Source of the DNA: a bacterium
GTDB lineage: Bacteria > Patescibacteriota > Minisyncoccia > Phycocordibacterales > DATDWN01
Assembly (NCBI GenBank): GCA_037134875.1
Contig: JBAXLH010000002.1
Location: forward strand, 27,719 to 91,718
Length of the DNA: 64,000 bases
Direction: 5' to 3'
The translations under genes and the position numbers were made by a program. Positions 9,755 to 29,146 of the stretch are shown piece by piece. The first letter of the stretch is position 1. Every line of letters starts with the position of its first letter. Under the pieces are notes generated by a model, which did no database searches, was not told the origin of the DNA, and was given only the letters and a program-made list of their open reading frames with translations.

Positions 9755-10693
9755 TTATTTAAACGTCATTGTTCCGGTGTCCAATTTCAAATCAAACACC
9801 AGTTCCCCTTTTGAAGTGAACAAATAACTTTGTACCTGGCTCAGCATTTTTGAGTAGTCTTGCTCTTGCGAACTTTCACAATACATCTGAGTAGACATCA
9901 TTTTGGTAAATGTGATTTTGTTTCCACTGACCGTATACTCCCCGCCGACACCATTGCAGTCCGTCGTCGCAGAAAAAGTTTTGTCGGCTTTAAACGTCAG
10001 TGCAAATTTATTTGTTTTTGGTGTCACAGTCGTGTCGTTGTTGTATCTCGTGTTTACCCAATTCCACGTTTTCATTGTCAATGTCATTTTGGACGGATCT
10101 GCCTCTCCTTCAAAATGTTGCGCCACCTCGCCAAACTGCATTGTCTTTGGATCGAGTTTGAGCCAAATACTTTTTCCGATTGACGGCGATACGGCAAAAC
10201 TTTCTCCGGGCTTTCTGTCCGCGTAGTTCACTACAATCACATTGGGCGTAGTCGGATCTTGCGACATCTCGGTCGTTTGAGGAGCAATGCGATCTCCGAG
10301 GAGTAATCCGTGCGAGCCAACATATCCATTGACCGTATTGAGCGCCGCTACGACATAATAAAATGTACCAGTGCCACCAGTGTTTTGCGTGAGAAGGAAC
10401 ACAGTGTCAGGACTTCCATCGCCGTCGAGATCGTGCGTCACCTCATTTCCAAAATATCGAGTTGTTATTTGTGATGCCGAACCGGGAGCAGCTGGCACAC
10501 TGGACACACCGTTGGTTAGAGTTACGGACTGTCCATCGATAGTATATGTTGCGTTTTTTGGACTCGTCGCACCGTGCGTTGTAGAAATATTTTGATCATC
10601 CGGCGACTGTCTCATAGCATAAAACACAAATGCACCTGTTCCCAAAATCACAACAATACCGAGCCCCACCCACAATAATATTTTTGTATTCAT
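9755..10693 (-). CDS. Hypothetical exported protein with C-terminal META/HslJ-like domain
   Basis: 312 aa. N-terminal TM anchor. C-terminal TTDCNGVGGEYTVSGNKITFTKMMSTQMYCESSQEQDYSKMLSQVQSY resembles the META-domain pattern (C-N..G.Y...G..L.F....T.M.C). Confidence 0.55.
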   Translation of the reverse strand: MNTKILLWVGLGIVVILGTGAFVFYAMRQSPDDQNISTTHGATSPKNATYTIDGQSVTLTNGVSSVPAAPGSASQITTRYFGNEVTHDLDGDGSPDTVFLLTQNTGGTGTFYYVVAALNTVNGYVGSHGLLLGDRIAPQTTEMSQDPTTPNVIVVNYADRKPGESFAVSPSIGKSIWLKLDPKTMQFGEVAQHFEGEADPSKMTLTMKTWNWVNTRYNNDTTVTPKTNKFALTFKADKTFSATTDCNGVGGEYTVSGNKITFTKMMSTQMYCESSQEQDYSKMLSQVQSYLFTSKGELVFDLKLDTGTMTFK

Positions 10694-10730
10694 ATATAGT
10701 ATGCCGTTTTAAAGGCGAATATATTTCATT

Positions 10731-11048
10731 CTAATAAAACAAAAGTTGCACCACAAAAAGTAGTATTGCAAAAATCGCTACGAAACATGCAAAAAATCCA
10801 ACAACTTTACCAAAGAAAATAATCGCTTCTCTCTTTCGATTTTCAATGAGTAAATACACCGACTCCGATAAAAATAAATATCCCATAACCGCAGCTGACA
10901 ACACAAAGAGACTCAACATAATCATCGGAATAATAATTGTCCCGTTTTGATCCTTGAGAAGAGAAGCTACGGCCTGCACAACAAAGACAATAACAACAAT
11001 GTAGGCCATCGCCATAAGTGCATGTAAAAATGGTTTTTTCATACTCAT
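10731..11048 (-). CDS. Small hypothetical integral membrane protein
   Basis: 105 aa. Three predicted TM helices. Confidence 0.45.
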   Translation of the reverse strand: MSMKKPFLHALMAMAYIVVIVFVVQAVASLLKDQNGTIIIPMIMLSLFVLSAAVMGYLFLSESVYLLIENRKREAIIFFGKVVGFFACFVAIFAILLFVVQLLFY

Positions 11049-11135
11049 AGTATAGCAAAATTCGAAAGATTGGACAGATTTTACAAAGAAAAAGCCGGCG
11101 AGTGGGTACGCCGAGCATTACAAATAATTTTGTTA

Positions 11136-11375
11136 TTAAGTTTTTTCGTTCTGGTGCAACCGACGCAACAACTCACGCTTGATGCTGAGCTCTCTCTGGT
11201 AGAGAGAACTTCTTCCAGGATCCATTATTTTCCCTCTTATATTTTCTGCCCATGAAAATCTCACGGCTACCGTGTATTCTGACACGAGCTCCTCATGAGT
11301 CATATCGACAAGCTTGACCTTGGCTCGTTTTGGTCTTATCACGGGAATTTGCATCCCGTCACCGATTTGCCCCAT
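11136..11375 (-). CDS. Hypothetical small protein
   Basis: 79 aa ORF in an intergenic gap on the same strand as its neighbours. No recognisable motif. Confidence 0.25.
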   Translation of the reverse strand: MGQIGDGMQIPVIRPKRAKVKLVDMTHEELVSEYTVAVRFSWAENIRGKIMDPGRSSLYQRELSIKRELLRRLHQNEKT

Positions 11376-23039: not shown

Positions 23040-23680
23040 ATATATAGTATAGCAGATTTATCCACCCAGAGCGCCTCGGTATCTGTGAGAGCTGTGACAG
23101 AATACGAAACTTTTTTTTGAAACTCGGCAACTTCGCCGGAAAGTTCTGCACGAAAATGCGGAAAAATAGAAATATCTGTGAGACTGAATCCAGAAAGATT
23201 TTGGAGATTTACATCATTTGGATCGCCCTCGCTCCCCCATCCGGCAATTTCAATACTTGGACCTGCAATAATACTGCCCGCGCTGACACCCACATAGAGC
23301 GCACCGTGCTCGCACACTGCAGACTCTATATATGTATCGATACCAGTTTTTTTCATTCGCTCCAATATTGCAAATGTGTTTCCTCCGCAGACATATACGA
23401 CATCGTATTTTTTATCACTCGAATCATCCGCCGACTCGGCAAAGGCAAATTTTTCTTCTGTCAGATTAAAAACTGTCACAGAGAGACCAAGGTCAGTGAG
23501 CTCCTGCACCGATTCGTCCACATATCCCTGCTCGTGTGCATTTTGTGCGTACGCTACAATGAGTGCTGTTGCATCGGAAAGCGATTTTCCCTGCCCCACC
23601 ATTTTCTCCACAACCTTCCGCACAAAAAATTCTTGAATTTCTTTGGTGGATAGTCCTGTTGATGTGAGAAGGAGGGTCAT
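23036..23680 (-). CDS. Peptidase E-like S51 family (type 1 glutamine amidotransferase-like)
   Basis: 214 aa. YVCGGNTFAILERMKKTGIDTYIESAV...YVGVSAGSIIAG S51 nucleophile region. Confidence 0.65.
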   Translation of the reverse strand: MTLLLTSTGLSTKEIQEFFVRKVVEKMVGQGKSLSDATALIVAYAQNAHEQGYVDESVQELTDLGLSVTVFNLTEEKFAFAESADDSSDKKYDVVYVCGGNTFAILERMKKTGIDTYIESAVCEHGALYVGVSAGSIIAGPSIEIAGWGSEGDPNDVNLQNLSGFSLTDISIFPHFRAELSGEVAEFQKKVSYSVTALTDTEALWVDKSAILYI

Positions 23681-24750
23681 TTTTTATCACAGATAACATA
23701 ATGTAAATATTCGACTGTTTTGTTTGCTGTATAGTTTCTATTTTCTGATTTATCAGCTTTGAAACGATTATATTCTTTTGTAAAAAATCCATACTTACCA
23801 CGTGAACTCATTATTTCCTTAATATCATTTAAATTCATCAAACCTTCATTGTTATAACTTAAAAAAATATACTTTGCATTTGCTTTAGAAATTAAATCCT
23901 TGAAAGCTTTTTTGACCTGCACTCGTGAACAATAAAGTGACTTCTGATTTTCATAATCACGAAGACCTGTTTTTCCATGAATCTTAGGTTTGTCATATTT
24001 GGCAATAGTTTCCAAAATATGATAATTGGTAGCATATTGACGTTGATTGTATGGTGGATCTAAATACAAAATATCCCCTTCAACCCTTTTTACAACTTCA
24101 TTTATATCCTCATTAAAAACTTCATGTTCATGATCATTAATAATTAAATTTGCAGGTTTTAAAATCAAATTATTTTGTGCAGATTTTTTTAATTTTTTTA
24201 GAAAAGCACCATAGACTGAGGCAGTATTTGCATATTTGTCTATAGACTCAACCAGACTAGTAACTAAAAAATAATATTCATCATCTGAAATTAAATTTTG
24301 ACTTTTCCATTTTTCAATCTCTTGACGAATGGCGTCACATCGCATACCATTTTCATCAGAAAAATACTGACGTGTTTCTTTTTCTCCCTCGGTCCCTCCA
24401 AGGCAATAGTTTTTATAAATAAAACCTTTTATACCCTTCAAATCTGATAAATAATTACAAACAAAGTTTTTCCTATTTTTTATTTCAATTTTACTTAAAT
24501 CTGGAATTTCTTTTGTTAGTTTCGAAAATATTAATTCTTTATGATTTCCTATATAGTGTCTATTTAAGACATAACTATAGTATTGAATGTCATTTGCAAT
24601 CACTTTGAAACCTTTTTTTTTAAAATAACTACCCACAGCACCAGTACCAGCAAATAAATCACAAAAAGTATTGCAATTTTTATCAACCACTTTATTTATA
24701 GAATTTTCCAAAAATTCTAGTAATGATAGTTTGCTACCGATATAATTCAT
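23677..24750 (-). CDS. Dam-like N6-adenine DNA methyltransferase (alpha class, D12 family)
   Basis: 357 aa. N-terminal NYIGSKLSLL and FAGTGAVG (motif I). DPPY (motif IV) at ILYLDPPYNQRQY. Confidence 0.8.
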   Translation of the reverse strand: MNYIGSKLSLLEFLENSINKVVDKNCNTFCDLFAGTGAVGSYFKKKGFKVIANDIQYYSYVLNRHYIGNHKELIFSKLTKEIPDLSKIEIKNRKNFVCNYLSDLKGIKGFIYKNYCLGGTEGEKETRQYFSDENGMRCDAIRQEIEKWKSQNLISDDEYYFLVTSLVESIDKYANTASVYGAFLKKLKKSAQNNLILKPANLIINDHEHEVFNEDINEVVKRVEGDILYLDPPYNQRQYATNYHILETIAKYDKPKIHGKTGLRDYENQKSLYCSRVQVKKAFKDLISKANAKYIFLSYNNEGLMNLNDIKEIMSSRGKYGFFTKEYNRFKADKSENRNYTANKTVEYLHYVICDKK

Positions 24751-24754
24751 GATT

Positions 24755-25654
24755 TTAGTTGTGTAATAATATTACAAAACAAGGCACTTTATAATTTTTT
24801 TCACCAAGATTTCTGTGTTTATAAGAAAAATTAATTTCAATCGGATTATTTAGATCTGTTTTATTTATAATCTCCCTAATTTTATCAATCGAGACATCTT
24901 CATCAATATATACAACCAATAATCGAGGGTCTGCACCAAATCTACCCTCATCTTGATATTTATAAAGGTATTCCGCAACAAGTTCTGGTTTCTTAATAGC
25001 TATTTCACGCCAGTTATCTTTGAAATGTCTCTTGAATTCATTTGTAGGACTTTTTGAAACTTTTTGATCAAACGAAATTCCGTTAATAAAAAAATCTACG
25101 CCACGTCTATGATTCAGAGTTGGTAAAATATTATCGTTTTTTTCAAAAATCAATGTCTCGATAAAGTCATTTCTTACAGTATTAATTTCTTTTATTCGTC
25201 TATATTTAACAGCTGCAATTTTGACTTTTTCATCCTTAATAAATCCATTTCCTTTCTCAGAATTCACTCTTTGGACAAACTCATCAAAAGCACCTTGGGA
25301 AAATGGCCACGCAATATCTCCTAATTTTAGAGATTTCCATTCCTTAATAAGCAAATCCATTGCATTATCAGCCTCTTTCCCACTTTTATATTTTTCAGTT
25401 CCTTTAAAAATATCTCTGATAATTTTCTTACTTTCATCATATGACCAACTGTCCACAATAATTTTCCAAAGTTCTTTTGTATTAATACTTAAGACCTTTT
25501 TACCTATGTTTTTTCCGCGAGTTATTGTTTTAAATTTCAAAGAAGAAATTGTTTTTATACTATTTAAACGCAACAAATATTCTGTGGCCTTTTCTTGATT
25601 ACCAATAATTTTCTGTGCCAAATCATCAGATAACTTTGATTTAATATATTCCAT
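24755..25654 (-). CDS. Putative type II restriction endonuclease (PD-(D/E)XK fold)
   Basis: 299 aa between two MTase genes. Candidate catalytic motif RGVDFFINGISFDQKVSK (D...DxK). Confidence 0.45.
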   Translation of the reverse strand: MEYIKSKLSDDLAQKIIGNQEKATEYLLRLNSIKTISSLKFKTITRGKNIGKKVLSINTKELWKIIVDSWSYDESKKIIRDIFKGTEKYKSGKEADNAMDLLIKEWKSLKLGDIAWPFSQGAFDEFVQRVNSEKGNGFIKDEKVKIAAVKYRRIKEINTVRNDFIETLIFEKNDNILPTLNHRRGVDFFINGISFDQKVSKSPTNEFKRHFKDNWREIAIKKPELVAEYLYKYQDEGRFGADPRLLVVYIDEDVSIDKIREIINKTDLNNPIEINFSYKHRNLGEKNYKVPCFVILLHN

Positions 25655-25656
25655 AA

Positions 25657-26439
25657 CTATTTTTTAAAAATTAATATATATTCATGCTTAAAAATATAAT
25701 AATCACTCGATAATGCTCTATATCTCCAAATTCCTTCTTTGTTTTGTTTAGCACGATTTCCCTCCATATTCTTTATAATTATACTCTTTAAAATCAATCC
25801 TTGCTTTTGAATCTCATTCATACAATAAAAACCAAGAGGAATCCACTGACCCTTGGAATATTTATCCCCAATAACTACTGCTAAATATCCTTCTTTTCCC
25901 AGAATTTCTACTGTATTTTTAACCACCGCTGAAAATTTTTCTAGAAAATCTTTCAGTGATTTTGTATTTGATAAATCTTCCTTTTTATCACTAAATTTAA
26001 TAATATCAGCGTATGGAGGATGTAAAATTGCAAGATTTATGTTATTTTTTTTTCTATCTTTTAAAATTTGTTTGATTTTTTCTAATGTCTTCTGACTACC
26101 ACTATCTGAAACCAAAAGCTCTGAGAAATATTTTTTATTGTCGACTTTATCTTTTACATGCTGAATAAGACTCGACTGTATATCAACACCTATAAAATGA
26201 CGTTCTAAACTTTCTGCTTCATAAGCAGTTGTTCCACTTCCAACAAATGGATCAAAAACAACATCGCCTTTTTTTGTATATCTCAAAATCAACTGATGTG
26301 GTATCTGAGGAACAAAATTACCATGATAGAATCCGTCATGTTTTCCACTCTTATCTCTTCCAGAAATAATCCATAGGCTATCTGTCCAAATCTCAGATTC
26401 TTTCCAATTATTTATATCTAAATCGTTAAAATTTGGCAT
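25657..26439 (-). CDS. DNA methyltransferase, circularly permuted N4/N6 family (second MTase of the R-M cassette)
   Basis: 260 aa. HGNFVPQIPHQLILRYTKKGDVVFDPFVGSGTT (normally the C-terminal motifs X/I of PF01555-type MTases) lies at the N-terminus. It is followed about 70 aa later by ILHPPYADI (motif IV). Confidence 0.7.
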   Translation of the reverse strand: MPNFNDLDINNWKESEIWTDSLWIISGRDKSGKHDGFYHGNFVPQIPHQLILRYTKKGDVVFDPFVGSGTTAYEAESLERHFIGVDIQSSLIQHVKDKVDNKKYFSELLVSDSGSQKTLEKIKQILKDRKKNNINLAILHPPYADIIKFSDKKEDLSNTKSLKDFLEKFSAVVKNTVEILGKEGYLAVVIGDKYSKGQWIPLGFYCMNEIQKQGLILKSIIIKNMEGNRAKQNKEGIWRYRALSSDYYIFKHEYILIFKK

Positions 26440-26492: not shown

Positions 26493-26521
26493 GAAAACAA
26501 AAGAAAAAGACTTCCCCCGGG
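26493..26521 (-). terminator. Rho-independent terminator of the HD-domain gene
   Basis: AAGACUUCCCCGGGGGAAGUCUUUUUCUUUUGUUUUC. Confidence 0.6.
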
Positions 26522-26527
26522 GAAGTC

Positions 26528-27700
26528 TTATTGAATCAGATGATTGGCCAGGCGGGTTAGTTCACTCACCCGGTCATCATTTACATAGTCGGGGTCCAAA
26601 TATATGTTGAAGCGGTACACCGGTTTCGGGTCGCTTTCGTCAAATGTAATATGGCCCGTCTCACTCACAAATGGGAGCTCGATCCTGCGCACATCCCGAC
26701 CCTTGCCGGCATAACAACAAACCACGCTGGTCGGAATCGCGAGTTGCTCGCTCATATAGTCGGCAACCAAACTCCGCGCGTCGTTTTGTCTCAAAAGACG
26801 AGTCAGTCCCGCCGGCGGTTCAGTCGTCTTGAGCGAGTACACCAATGGGTACCACTCGTTTGCCATCGCTCGCCTGACGAGATGAGCAGAAAGATAATTT
26901 GAGCGAAAAAGAAAATCGACTGCTTCTGTATCCGACAAGTGAAAGAAATCTTCGTTGATCTCTCCACGTTCCTGTGCCAGATACAGAGCGCGATATATCA
27001 TTGAGGCAGAATTGAGATCGTACTCGCCGTAGATCTTTTCATATACGTGAGCTCTCGCCGTCTGCCATTTTTGAGTCTCTTCTATGCACTCGGCACAGAG
27101 AAACCATTTATCATTTATTTGCGGATCTGAAAAAGTGATGAGTCCAAAGCGAGAAGCAATGGATTCCGCATCAAAGAGTATTTCTCCGTACGAGCGCGCA
27201 AACCAGTAGCGCCCGACGTTATCGAGATTGTCCACATCCATACTGCCGTTGAGAATATCGGAAAATGGTTTCCTATTTCCCGTCACGATTTTGACAACTT
27301 GCTCTGGGTCAATCCCTAGCCGGTCAAACATATGAGTAACAGCAAACCGCGAAATGGTTTCTTCCAAAAAAGATTCGCCATCTTTGCCGGTCTGCTTTTT
27401 CAAAAATGTTTCGCCCAAATGTGAAAGAGCTGGGTTGCCAGCGTCATGCAAAAGTGCCGAGACGAGTAGTAGTGTCTCGTATTGTTTCGATGTCTCGCGA
27501 TTGGTACGCAGGGCATAGTCCATAAGGTGACAGACGCCGACGCAATGTTGAAATCGCGACGGAATCGGCCACGGCACCATACTCTGTGGCAAAACGCCCT
27601 GAGAAATATCTCTCAGACGTTGCATAATAGGTGTCGCCATTATGTCGCCGATGTAATCCGGCAACTCAATGGGACCATATAATTTGTCGTCGTACTTCAC
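26528..27700 (-). CDS. HD-domain dNTP triphosphohydrolase-like protein (dGTPase/SAMHD1-like)
   Basis: 390 aa. RFQHCVGVCHLM and LLHDAGNPALSH match the SAMHD1/Dgt motifs RFEHSLGV.HLA and LLHD.GH.PFSH. GC-elevated relative to neighbours. Confidence 0.7.
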   Translation of the reverse strand: MKYDDKLYGPIELPDYIGDIMATPIMQRLRDISQGVLPQSMVPWPIPSRFQHCVGVCHLMDYALRTNRETSKQYETLLLVSALLHDAGNPALSHLGETFLKKQTGKDGESFLEETISRFAVTHMFDRLGIDPEQVVKIVTGNRKPFSDILNGSMDVDNLDNVGRYWFARSYGEILFDAESIASRFGLITFSDPQINDKWFLCAECIEETQKWQTARAHVYEKIYGEYDLNSASMIYRALYLAQERGEINEDFFHLSDTEAVDFLFRSNYLSAHLVRRAMANEWYPLVYSLKTTEPPAGLTRLLRQNDARSLVADYMSEQLAIPTSVVCCYAGKGRDVRRIELPFVSETGHITFDESDPKPVYRFNIYLDPDYVNDDRVSELTRLANHLIQ

Positions 27701-27764
27701 GTTTGGTTCCCTTTCCAGTCAGAATACTGCGATATTTCCGGCAAAAAAGCAATGCCGCGCAAAG

Positions 27765-28142
27765 TTATTTTGTCACACAGTCAGAAATAGTCGTTGTGCC
27801 GTTTTGCTCCACAAATGCTGTGTTGCCTTTGTTCCAAAATACAAATGACTCATCCGCGTTGGCATAGCGAGCACCGGACGCGGAGATAGTTTGAGTCAAA
27901 TAGATTTCTGATACGCCGGGCAATTGCAGTCTCACAGCTCGAGGATAAAAGTCTGCAGAAATAATCCGACTGACTCCCCCGCCGAGACCACAGACAAAGC
28001 GTGCTTCGGTTACCCTCTCGCCCAATATCATTTCTCTTTCAAGTTTTTTACCAACAGTTAGTCCGACAAAAAATACTGCAACAAAAAGAATAATTGCGAC
28101 CACTTGCGAAAACCACGTAACCTTGTTCCAAATTATTTTCAT
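27765..28142 (-). CDS. MliC-family (membrane-bound lysozyme inhibitor of C-type lysozyme) protein
   Basis: 125 aa. Signal anchor. ARFVCGLGG...ISASGARYANADESFVFWNKGNTAFVEQNG...DCV matches the MliC consensus (C...SASGA.Y......W.KG....C). Confidence 0.6.
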   Translation of the reverse strand: MKIIWNKVTWFSQVVAIILFVAVFFVGLTVGKKLEREMILGERVTEARFVCGLGGGVSRIISADFYPRAVRLQLPGVSEIYLTQTISASGARYANADESFVFWNKGNTAFVEQNGTTTISDCVTK

Positions 28143-28156
28143 AGATTTTTAATTTA

Positions 28157-29146
28157 TTACTTTAATAATTGTAAAATAAGTTTAATTATTTTTTCTTTGT
28201 CTTTTGGATTACTTTCAGCAACAAGAATAGTCAGTGCAGTCAAAGCAGGAGGAGTCATTTTGGTAGTATTCAATAATTTAGATTGTTTTAAAAACCATAC
28301 AAAAGCATATGCGCCACTACGTTTATTACCATCTACAAACGGGTGATTCTTTACCATAAAATACAAAAGATGTGCCGCTTTTTCTTCTACGGTTTCGTAT
28401 AGTTCTTTTCCCGCAAATGACTGCATCACGTTGCCAACAATACCAGCAATGGTTCCCTCATTTCGTTCCATACCAAATATGTCCGTAGCTTCATCTTTTT
28501 CAATCAGAACATTTTTGAGCTCAACCAAACTTTTTGAAAGTTTATCGGCTGTGAGACTAACACTTTTTCTGGTAGCTCCTTTTGTTACTAACACATCTCT
28601 ATCATATGCATCAAGTGATAGCCAAGTATCAGCAAACATATGTATAAGCTCGATAACACTCTCTGTATCAATGTGTGCTCCAGATGGCAGAAGCTTTTTG
28701 ATAGTACTTATTGCTTCCAAAAATTGCTCGTAATTCTGAGTAATTCGTTTTTTATTTATTGTATAACCATCAACAATATGCCCTCGAAGAGTTTTTGTTG
28801 CCCATTGACGAAACTGGGTAGCTTTTTTGCTATTTACTCGGTAGCCAACTGACAATATCATATCCAAATTATAGTGATTGATTTCACGTTCTATTTTTCT
28901 TTCACCTTCTTTTTGAACTATCCGGAATTTCCGGATAGTTGAACTCTCAAATAATTCCTTTGTTTTATATATATTTTTTATGTGTTCGTTAATTGTTCGA
29001 ACATCAACATCAAATGCAGAAGCTATTTGTGCTTGTGTAGCCCAAACTGTGTCTCGTGAAAAATCACCTCGGAGCTCGATCGCCCCGTTTTTTGCTTGAT
29101 ATATCACGACTGAATTTTTTGATATTTCCTTTTTCATTATATTCAA
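28157..29146 (-). CDS. RhuM-family / Fic-domain protein
   Basis: 329 aa. C-terminal Fic motif HPFVDGNKRSGAYAFVWFL (HPFx[DE]GN[GK]R). N-terminal RhuM-like DNA-binding region. Confidence 0.7.
   Translation of the reverse strand: MNIMKKEISKNSVVIYQAKNGAIELRGDFSRDTVWATQAQIASAFDVDVRTINEHIKNIYKTKELFESSTIRKFRIVQKEGERKIEREINHYNLDMILSVGYRVNSKKATQFRQWATKTLRGHIVDGYTINKKRITQNYEQFLEAISTIKKLLPSGAHIDTESVIELIHMFADTWLSLDAYDRDVLVTKGATRKSVSLTADKLSKSLVELKNVLIEKDEATDIFGMERNEGTIAGIVGNVMQSFAGKELYETVEEKAAHLLYFMVKNHPFVDGNKRSGAYAFVWFLKQSKLLNTTKMTPPALTALTILVAESNPKDKEKIIKLILQLLK

Follow-up and report, generated by a model that had tools for sequence, protein, structure and literature searches.

Does a gene for an HD-domain phosphohydrolase that lies directly beside a restriction-modification (R-M) system serve in anti-phage defence, or is it a resident gene of nucleotide metabolism beside which the R-M genes have landed? 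This question is raised by a locus in a member of the Patescibacteriota (Minisyncoccia; Phycocordibacterales; DATDWN01), in which a coding sequence for 390 amino acids (aa) occupies positions 26528..27700 on the minus strand of a 64,000-nucleotide stretch of contig JBAXLH010000002.1 (assembly GCA_037134875.1, contig positions 27,719 to 91,718, forward strand), hereafter called the window. An earlier note, made from the letters of the DNA, had taken this gene for a horizontally acquired, SAMHD1/dGTPase-like defence gene whose product depletes deoxynucleoside triphosphates (dNTPs). Based on the open reading frame (ORF), its homologues, an AlphaFold2 (AF2) model, and Foldseek comparisons, the product was assigned to the HD-domain phosphohydrolases with the SAMHD1/EF1143 fold. 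We see about an even chance that it is a native hydrolase of the nucleotide triphosphohydrolase type, which trims or balances the nucleotide pool and for which dNTPs would be the likeliest substrate. The proposal is built on observations of the protein (its fold and conserved catalytic core), of the family (its distribution and its lack of defence linkage), and of the gene (native base composition and a terminator), and from these we infer which reaction is catalysed, on what substrate, and to what end in the cell.

Fold and family placement

The AF2 model, calculated from a 32-sequence family alignment, has a mean predicted local distance difference test (pLDDT) score of 94.4 and a predicted template modelling (pTM) score of 0.92. 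The best 50 matches in a Foldseek search of the PDB were all SAMHD1 (human or fungal), EF1143 of Enterococcus faecalis, Aq_1910 (2hek), or BT4208 (2q14), and these matches were full-length, with query-normalized TM-scores (TMq) of 0.66-0.77, identities of 13-19%, and E-values down to 1.9e-15. When compared with PDB chains, the family profile matched 2hek (1.6e-25), 2q14 (5.7e-21), fungal SAMHD1 (1.4e-18), EF1143 (6e-15), and human SAMHD1 (~4e-12), whereas Dgt-type chains (4x9e, 2dqb, 7w1f, 9vwa, and 9p8t) were matched no better than at 1e-5 to 8e-3, with the alignment confined to the HD motif. An hhalign comparison with relatives that carry HD and HD_assoc_2 (COG1078-type) gave a probability of 99.95% and an E-value of 1.6e-38 over 285 columns, covering residues 1-294.

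The family-specific models gave weaker results. The Pfam HD match is marginal (24.9 bits against a cut-off of 22), and the Pfam scan of the protein returned neither HD_assoc (PF13286), which is present in the E. coli Dgt control (505 aa), nor HD_assoc_2 (PF19276). HD_assoc_2 was also without a match in the relatives P0020 and P0228, and the outgroup proteins P0064 and P0067 carry it at 96-302 bits. Despite the missing HD_assoc_2 match, the C-terminal half is predicted to superpose on the SAMHD1-type fold. The NCBIfam dGTPase models TIGR01353, NF003429, and NF002205 scored 18.3, 16.7, and 15.9 bits against cut-offs of 152, 405, and 439, with the similarity limited to residues 65-111. The PADLOC dGTPase model (PDLC02374) gave no match to the HD protein at E<=0.01, whereas E. 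coli Dgt, used as the positive control, scored 236.7 bits with the same model; family relatives scored 15-36 bits over the HD motif only. Membership in the Dgt/dGTPase family was thus ruled out by sub-cut-off scores, the missing PADLOC match, and the missing HD_assoc domain. Since the class is settled by structure and the sequence profiles alone are weak, the protein is placed on a divergent SAMHD1/EF1143 (COG1078-type) branch and not with Dgt; as judged from the model, it is a compact single-domain member of this class of metal-dependent phosphohydrolases. The label "SAMHD1/dGTPase-like" given in the earlier note is therefore correct for the structural class and incorrect for the Dgt family (16-18 bits against 152-439 and no PADLOC match). 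The family appears to be uncharacterized and to lie outside the Pfam HD_assoc, HD_assoc_2, and PADLOC dGTPase models, and in the literature searched no paper links SAMHD1-like proteins with Patescibacteria.

Among known proteins, EF1143 and the uncharacterized structural-genomics proteins Aq_1910 and BT4208 gave the best profile matches (1.6e-25 to 6e-15) together with a full-length fold match (TMq 0.66-0.73). The window protein is similar in size to 2hek (371 aa) and has in common with these enzymes the N-terminal xDxxYG...QRLR, the RFxH and HDxGxxPxSH motifs, and an R...Y...Y helix with a Tyr at the H370 position. Where the canonical EF1143-type sequences read HDxGH and DxD[KR]xDYxxRD and carry a His at the H233 position, it reads HDAGN and DVDNLDNVGRY and carries a Gly. 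For EF1143, dNTPase activity has been proven and an allosteric site for dGTP is known; the residues that match this site are not conserved in the window protein. Human and fungal SAMHD1 (9mr6, 7a5y, and 6txc) were the top structural matches (TMq 0.75-0.77, identity 13-19%), and the window protein keeps counterparts of their metal tetrad and H215/D218 dyad as well as of R164, Q149, R366, and Y374. Unlike SAMHD1, the window protein has no SAM domain, its catalytic region is ~100 residues shorter, the equivalents of H210, H233, K312, Y315, and D319 are replaced, and D137 and R145 of allosteric site 1 (AL1) are not conserved. With E. coli Dgt and the anti-phage dGTPase clade (Sp-dGTPase and Vdg) it shares the HD metal site and the pattern HDxGN-P-x-x-x-H-x-x-E, including the Asn and the His/Glu dyad, so that the likeness to Dgt seen earlier does exist at the motif level: HDAGNPALSHLGE in the window protein resembles HDIGNPPFGHFGE in E. 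coli Dgt. This similarity nevertheless spans only ~35-50 residues; HD_assoc and the Tyr equivalent to Y272 are absent, the length is 390 aa as against 505 aa for E. coli Dgt and about 440-505 aa for the Dgt family (COG0232), and the overall fold and sequence are nearer to the SAMHD1 branch than to Dgt.

Conserved catalytic residues and proposed mechanism

In a residue census of 184 family members, H52, H85, D86, D157, H94, E97, R216, and Y220 were near-invariant. Two segments that had been read as HD metal-binding motifs, RFQHCVGVCHLM (residues 49-60) and LLHDAGNPALSH (residues 83-94), are indeed present and place H52, H85, D86, and H94 on invariant columns of the family alignment, with the H...HD...D ligands and the catalytic His intact. 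The RFQH motif R49-H52 (27545..27556, minus strand), assigned by profile alignments to PDB chains, comprises the first metal-ligand His, corresponding to SAMHD1 H167 and found in 182/184 members, and the phosphate-binding Arg, corresponding to R164 and found in 161/184. The segment H85-E97 with the sequence HDAGNPALSHLGE (27410..27448, minus strand), assigned from alignments and the census, holds the HD metal ligands, N89, and the catalytic dyad H94/E97. Accordingly, the metal tetrad H52, H85, D86, and D157 corresponds to H167, H206, D207, and D311 of SAMHD1 and to H69, H117, D118, and D268 of Dgt, and the dyad corresponds to SAMHD1 H215/D218 and Dgt H126/E129. On the helix W212...R216...Y220...Y224 (27029..27067, minus strand), as aligned to 9mr6, 2hek, and EF1143, R216 is the equivalent of the triphosphate-contacting R366 of SAMHD1 and is present in all 184 members, and Y224, the equivalent of Y374, is present in 147/184. 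Q34, the equivalent of SAMHD1 Q149, is also kept in the family. The roles of these residues in SAMHD1 and Dgt have been described previously (PMC7311409, PMC8177086, PMC6511015). Read at the sequence level, this conserved core says that the protein would be catalytically active, as a metal-dependent phosphohydrolase with a nucleotide polyphosphate as its substrate.

A possible catalytic mechanism is proposed by analogy with these enzymes. The metal bound by H52, H85, D86, and D157 could activate a water molecule for attack on the α-phosphate of a nucleoside triphosphate, the phosphates of which may be held by R49 and R216. The H94-E97 dyad may then protonate the leaving 5'-oxygen, and the products would be a nucleoside and triphosphate. 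In the cell, such a reaction would allow a resident gene to trim or balance the nucleotide pool under dependence on salvage, with dNTPs as the default guess for the substrate, and the R-M cluster would be a separate low-GC insertion beside this gene.

Gene boundaries and base composition of the locus

The gene starts with GTG at 27700 and ends with TAA. A ribosome-binding site (RBS)-like sequence, GGAAAGGGAA (27707..27716, minus strand), was read 5' of the GTG, with a spacing to it of 6 nt from the end of this sequence and 7 nt from the end of its GGGA core. In the publicly annotated version (P0001, assembly GCA_964547445.1, contig CAZJNJ010000002.1), the protein has 331 aa and begins at the internal Met60, which leaves out 27523-27700 of the minus strand, including the RFQH metal-ligand motif. 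About 60 homologues of 378-390 aa align with the HD protein from residue 1, and because of this alignment and the RBS before the GTG, the 390-aa ORF is regarded as correct; the public start codon is likely to have been mis-called, with the GTG start missed. The same two observations rule out a truncated gene or a pseudogene, a reading that the 331-aa annotation had prompted.

At the stop codon begins an intrinsic terminator (26497..26529, minus strand; read from the sequence), which consists of a 10-bp GC-rich stem with a 3-nt loop, AAGACTTCCC-CGG-GGGAAGTCTT, and a T-run, TTTTCTTTTGT; the gene thus has a terminator of its own, as had been stated earlier. This terminator and an AT-rich promoter-like spacer separate the HD gene from the R-M cluster, and we infer that the HD gene is transcribed independently of it. 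An operon with the R-M genes was ruled out by the terminator together with the break in GC content.

The adjacency to an R-M system, also stated earlier, was borne out. Downstream of the HD gene on the minus strand, the cluster consists of an N6_N4 DNA methyltransferase (MTase) gene (25657-26439), an ORF of 299 aa (24755-25654), and a D12-class MTase gene (23677-24750). Searches of Pfam, NCBIfam, PADLOC, and PDB sequences returned nothing for the 299-aa ORF between the two MTase genes; this ORF presumably encodes an unclassified restriction endonuclease. The stop codon of the D12 MTase gene overlaps the start of a native gene for a peptidase S51 (23677-23680). Directly upstream of the HD gene, likewise on the minus strand, lies a gene for an MliC-like lysozyme inhibitor of 125 aa (27765-28142), followed by a gene that joins a RhuM-family N-terminal part to a Fic/Doc toxin domain (28157-29146; PADLOC candidate PDC-S23, E 1e-111). 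An operon of the HD gene with the MliC gene was rejected, since MliC adjoins the family gene in no other locus.

The GC content of the HD gene is 0.483 (z=+1.4 among 60 window ORFs), with 0.52 at third codon positions (GC3). The three R-M genes (23677-26439) have GC contents of only 0.27-0.29 (z -2.2 to -2.6) against a window mean of 0.41, which marks this cluster as a clear recent insertion, and the RhuM-Fic/Doc gene (0.344) is a second low-GC insert on the far side of the MliC and HD pair. The elevated GC content from which horizontal acquisition had been deduced is therefore elevated only relative to the R-M genes; it equals that of the adjacent housekeeping MgsA/RarA gene (0.482) and is below that of DprA (0.494). 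Given the low GC content of the flanking genes and the native one of the HD gene, the argument is reversed: foreign DNA surrounds the HD gene, which is not itself foreign in composition.

Family distribution

A word-indexed search yielded ~60 close relatives with 40-64% identity, and all those with a named source belong to Patescibacteria (Giovannonibacteria, Sungiibacteriota, and Paceibacterota). An exhaustive profile search of 1.84 billion representatives gave 319 clusters (at 50% identity) with E<=1e-30, nearly all of 370-420 aa. In a motif-seeded scan of GTDB species genomes, 29 loci were found, including loci of Yanofsky-, Staskawicz-, Uhr-, Nealson-, Giovannoni-, and Woesebacteria, and a few of these loci are probably mis-binned or distant. 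The scan patterns favour the subfamily with Asn and Gly at positions 89 and 108, and the 29 loci are thus a lower bound on prevalence and were not used as evidence of rarity. From these searches the family is almost confined to Patescibacteria (the candidate phyla radiation, CPR), where nearly all members are found. Identity drops roughly with taxonomic distance, from 40-50% in Paceibacteria-type members to 30% in Woesebacteria, in keeping with a CPR family that is old and has undergone losses.

The family gene of L029 (5264-6442), on a contig that was binned as Methanosarcinales but is possibly a mis-binned CPR contig, is split into ORFs of 217 and 160 aa, probably by a frameshift or as a pseudogene. 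No family member was detected among IMG/VR viral contigs by a motif-based scan, and a phage-borne origin was rejected on this result as far as such a scan reaches; in BFVD, only generic giant-virus SAMHD1-like HD proteins were matched.

Remodelled substrate pocket

Several observations weigh against the proposed dNTP-directed resident enzyme, and they come from the predicted substrate pocket as well as from the distribution and genomic surroundings of the family. Substrate specificity is the weakest step, because the predicted pocket is unlike that of every characterized dNTPase. In place of the canonical DxD[KR]xDYxxRD, the family has DxDNxDNxxR[YF] throughout. In the window protein, this segment is DVDNLDNVGRY at residues 155-165 (27206..27238, minus strand; from alignments), in which the ligand D157 is retained and N158, N161, and Y165 replace K312, Y315, and D319 of SAMHD1. 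N158 is found in 172/184 members and N161 in 175/184, both are present in all GTDB loci, and at position 165 the family varies among Y, F, L, and W. In SAMHD1, K312 contacts phosphate and D319 contacts the 3'-OH (PMC7311409), and in E. coli Dgt the substitution Y272A, at the position equivalent to SAMHD1 Y315 and N161 of the window protein, inactivates the enzyme (PMC6511015). Position 35, which corresponds to L150, the steric gate of SAMHD1 against the 2'-OH, is variable and small or polar. The equivalents of the AL1 allosteric residues D137 and R145 are variable and not conserved in the family alignment, in which the SAMHD1 Q142 equivalent, Q27, is common.

The second metal site is altered as well. 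In DGES 107-110 (27371..27382, minus strand; alignments of sHEdF or tHEe with dGEsF), G108 replaces the equivalent of the second-metal ligand H233, next to the invariant E109. H233 of SAMHD1 is an Mg3 ligand, and H233A cuts kcat ~300-fold (PMC7311409), whereas the window subfamily has Gly at this position. In the wider family, G is found at position 108 in 96/184 members and H in 84/184, so that about half keeps the His. N89 stands in place of SAMHD1 H210, and Asn is also found there in E. coli Dgt. Positions 89 and 108 covary strongly in the 184 members, with (N,G) in 84, (S/T/H/A,H) in 81, and (S,G) in 10. This pattern suggests that the second metal site was remodelled step by step and with compensating changes.

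Because the pocket for sugar and phosphate is remodelled, dNTP specificity is not transferable from SAMHD1, EF1143, or Dgt, and neither dNTP specificity nor even efficient triphosphohydrolysis should be assumed from the alignments. The dNTP depletion named in the earlier note is accordingly uncertain, as is dNTPase activity itself, since several of the residues that contact dNTPs in SAMHD1, EF1143, and Dgt are replaced. A possible, though rather doubtful, alternative is that the protein retains the fold and the metal chemistry and acts on another substrate, such as ribonucleoside triphosphates (NTPs), alarmone-type nucleotides, 2'/3'-substituted nucleotides, or modified or damaged nucleotides. 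The family-wide N158, N161, and Y165 favour this alternative, as they stand at positions that bind phosphate and the deoxyribose 3'-OH in SAMHD1 (PMC7311409) and, for the Tyr, at one that is essential in Dgt (PMC6511015), and so do the variable, small or polar residue at the gate position 35, a C-terminal half that matches neither HD_assoc nor HD_assoc_2, and the diverse chemistries that the HD superfamily performs on one scaffold (PMC8177086). However, the equivalents of Q149, R164, R366, and Y374, which shape the dNTP site, are kept, and the genomic context points to no specific alternative. Distinctive of the family are the DxDNxDN signature and, in the sub-branch of the window protein, the correlated loss of the second-metal His. 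We tentatively raise the possibility that the SAMHD1 fold has a branch peculiar to Patescibacteria whose active site has been rebuilt, in the window subfamily also by an exchange of the second-metal His coupled to a change from His, Ser, or Thr to Asn at the HDxGx position. Such a branch would have a Dgt-like or mononuclear catalytic centre and a non-dNTP substrate among ribo-, modified, or signalling nucleotides.

Genomic context of relatives and the defence hypothesis

To describe the surroundings of the family, ORFs were called and clustered in 28 family loci with flanks of up to 10 kb, often less. The close homologues have essentially no common neighbours, and homologues of the RhuM-Fic and MliC genes were found in none of these 28 loci. 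The N6_N4 MTase gene of one locus (L032) is the sole homologue of an R-M gene of the window, and 32/33 other family loci are without R-M or RhuM-Fic homologues in the sampled flanks. Among the 83 immediate neighbours of relatives, Pfam searches identified gyrA, dnaE, GlmS, Msr, sigma-70, tRNA synthetases, and a release factor (RF), and PADLOC gave MTase and helicase-type models only, among the matches listed (25 of 95 models, one member each). The dnaE gene directly adjoins the family gene in L011, a class II ribonucleotide reductase gene lies four genes away in L016 and L018, and L041 has IMPDH, gyrB, tmk, and thyX downstream of it; L040 has pol III tau, and L042 a ligase and a NUDIX protein. 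In five genomes (L023, L026, L028, L030, and L031; ~10001-11200), the family gene stands next to gyrA in fully conserved synteny; this lineage is a divergent branch with 26-34% identity and 394-447 aa, and its stable setting differs from the variable one of the closer homologues. The repeated proximity, in individual loci, to genes for replication and dNTP synthesis is suggestive of a role in nucleotide metabolism.

Two other observations were made in these loci. In L019 (6183-9101, plus strand), a leucyl-tRNA synthetase is interrupted, directly behind its editing domain, by a NUDIX domain (residues 382-513), and in L014 (8978-11449, plus strand), an 824-aa fusion joins glucose-6-phosphate dehydrogenase and 6-phosphogluconate dehydrogenase domains.

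Other features of the surroundings count among the points against a resident housekeeping enzyme. The family is patchily distributed, as is also typical of accessory and defence genes. Gene order is not conserved among the closest homologues (58-64% identity), which lie on short contigs with unrelated, mostly unannotated neighbours. MTase genes are also found next door in L041 and L032. Large serine recombinase genes lie 3-8 kb from the HD homologue in L041 (1-6907) and L042 (12323-14002, equal to L006:4590-6266), and in L041 a type III-like pair of Mod and Res stands between the recombinase and the HD gene; the HD gene may lie at the edges of integration hotspots. With regard to gene order, a synteny check with MgsA/RarA as the anchor showed that the closest relatives, whose MgsA is 82-84% identical, share no gene order with the window. 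The missing positional conservation of the HD gene thus says little, because the synteny of the flanking housekeeping MgsA is absent too.

These features bear on the hypothesis from which the earlier note had started, namely, that the gene was acquired horizontally and encodes a standalone effector against phages, which would deplete dNTPs on infection; the gene would then be part of a defence island with the R-M and RhuM-Fic/Doc genes. Such a function would be in line with dNTP-depleting dGTPases and SAMHD1 as established antiviral effectors, with the position of the gene between two low-GC, defence-flavoured inserts (the type II R-M cluster and the RhuM and Fic/Doc fusion, PDC-S23, 1e-111), with the patchy family and the lack of conserved synteny of its close homologues, and with the two further loci with an adjacent MTase and the two with nearby serine recombinases. 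However, a DNA MTase adjoins the gene in 3/33 non-redundant loci, a small sample, namely, the window, L041 (a type III-like Mod with a helicase), and L032. This frequency equals the background of roughly 10% that Tal et al. regard as non-defensive for distant dGTPase homologues, and it was therefore not taken as defence linkage. Moreover, the PADLOC dGTPase model gives no match as against 237 bits for E. coli Dgt, the composition is native, the terminator stands between the gene and the R-M cluster, the neighbours of relatives look like housekeeping genes with only MTase and helicase-type PADLOC models among the matches listed, one lineage has a stable gyrA-adjacent synteny, and residues needed for dNTPase activity are altered. 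We therefore consider a defence role unlikely; it is unsupported rather than disproved. Nor did the family show the combination of conserved position, Dgt-typical length, and allosteric sites that the note had associated with a housekeeping dGTPase: the protein is shorter than Dgt, its allosteric residues are unrecognizable, and synteny is not conserved. As a defence candidate the gene is weak, and the signal in its favour is one of guilt by association, from an R-M cassette that landed beside a resident gene.

A weakened or non-catalytic nucleotide-binding sensor or regulator derived from a SAMHD1-like enzyme, to which G108 in place of H233 and N161 in place of Y315/Y272 might point given that H233A and Y272A severely cripple SAMHD1 and Dgt, is very improbable, because ~184 diverse members show next to no variation in the four metal ligands or in the His-Glu dyad, which argues for retained catalysis, and the covariation, with (N89,G108) as against (S/T/H,H108), resembles compensated remodelling and not decay.

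Significance for Patescibacteria and the SAMHD1/Dgt superfamily

CPR bacteria have no de novo nucleotide synthesis and depend on salvage. In such cells, an enzyme that degrades nucleoside triphosphates, as proposed here for a native HD hydrolase of the SAMHD1/EF1143 class, would bear on the control of the nucleotide pool. If the re-engineered site does serve a non-dNTP substrate, this would amount to an enzymatic specificity not seen before, linked to the way in which these bacteria live by scavenging. The family is one of few SAMHD1-fold lineages in which the Tyr/Lys/Asp contact triad has been systematically replaced while the metal centre has been kept, and it would extend the sequence-function map of the SAMHD1/Dgt superfamily.

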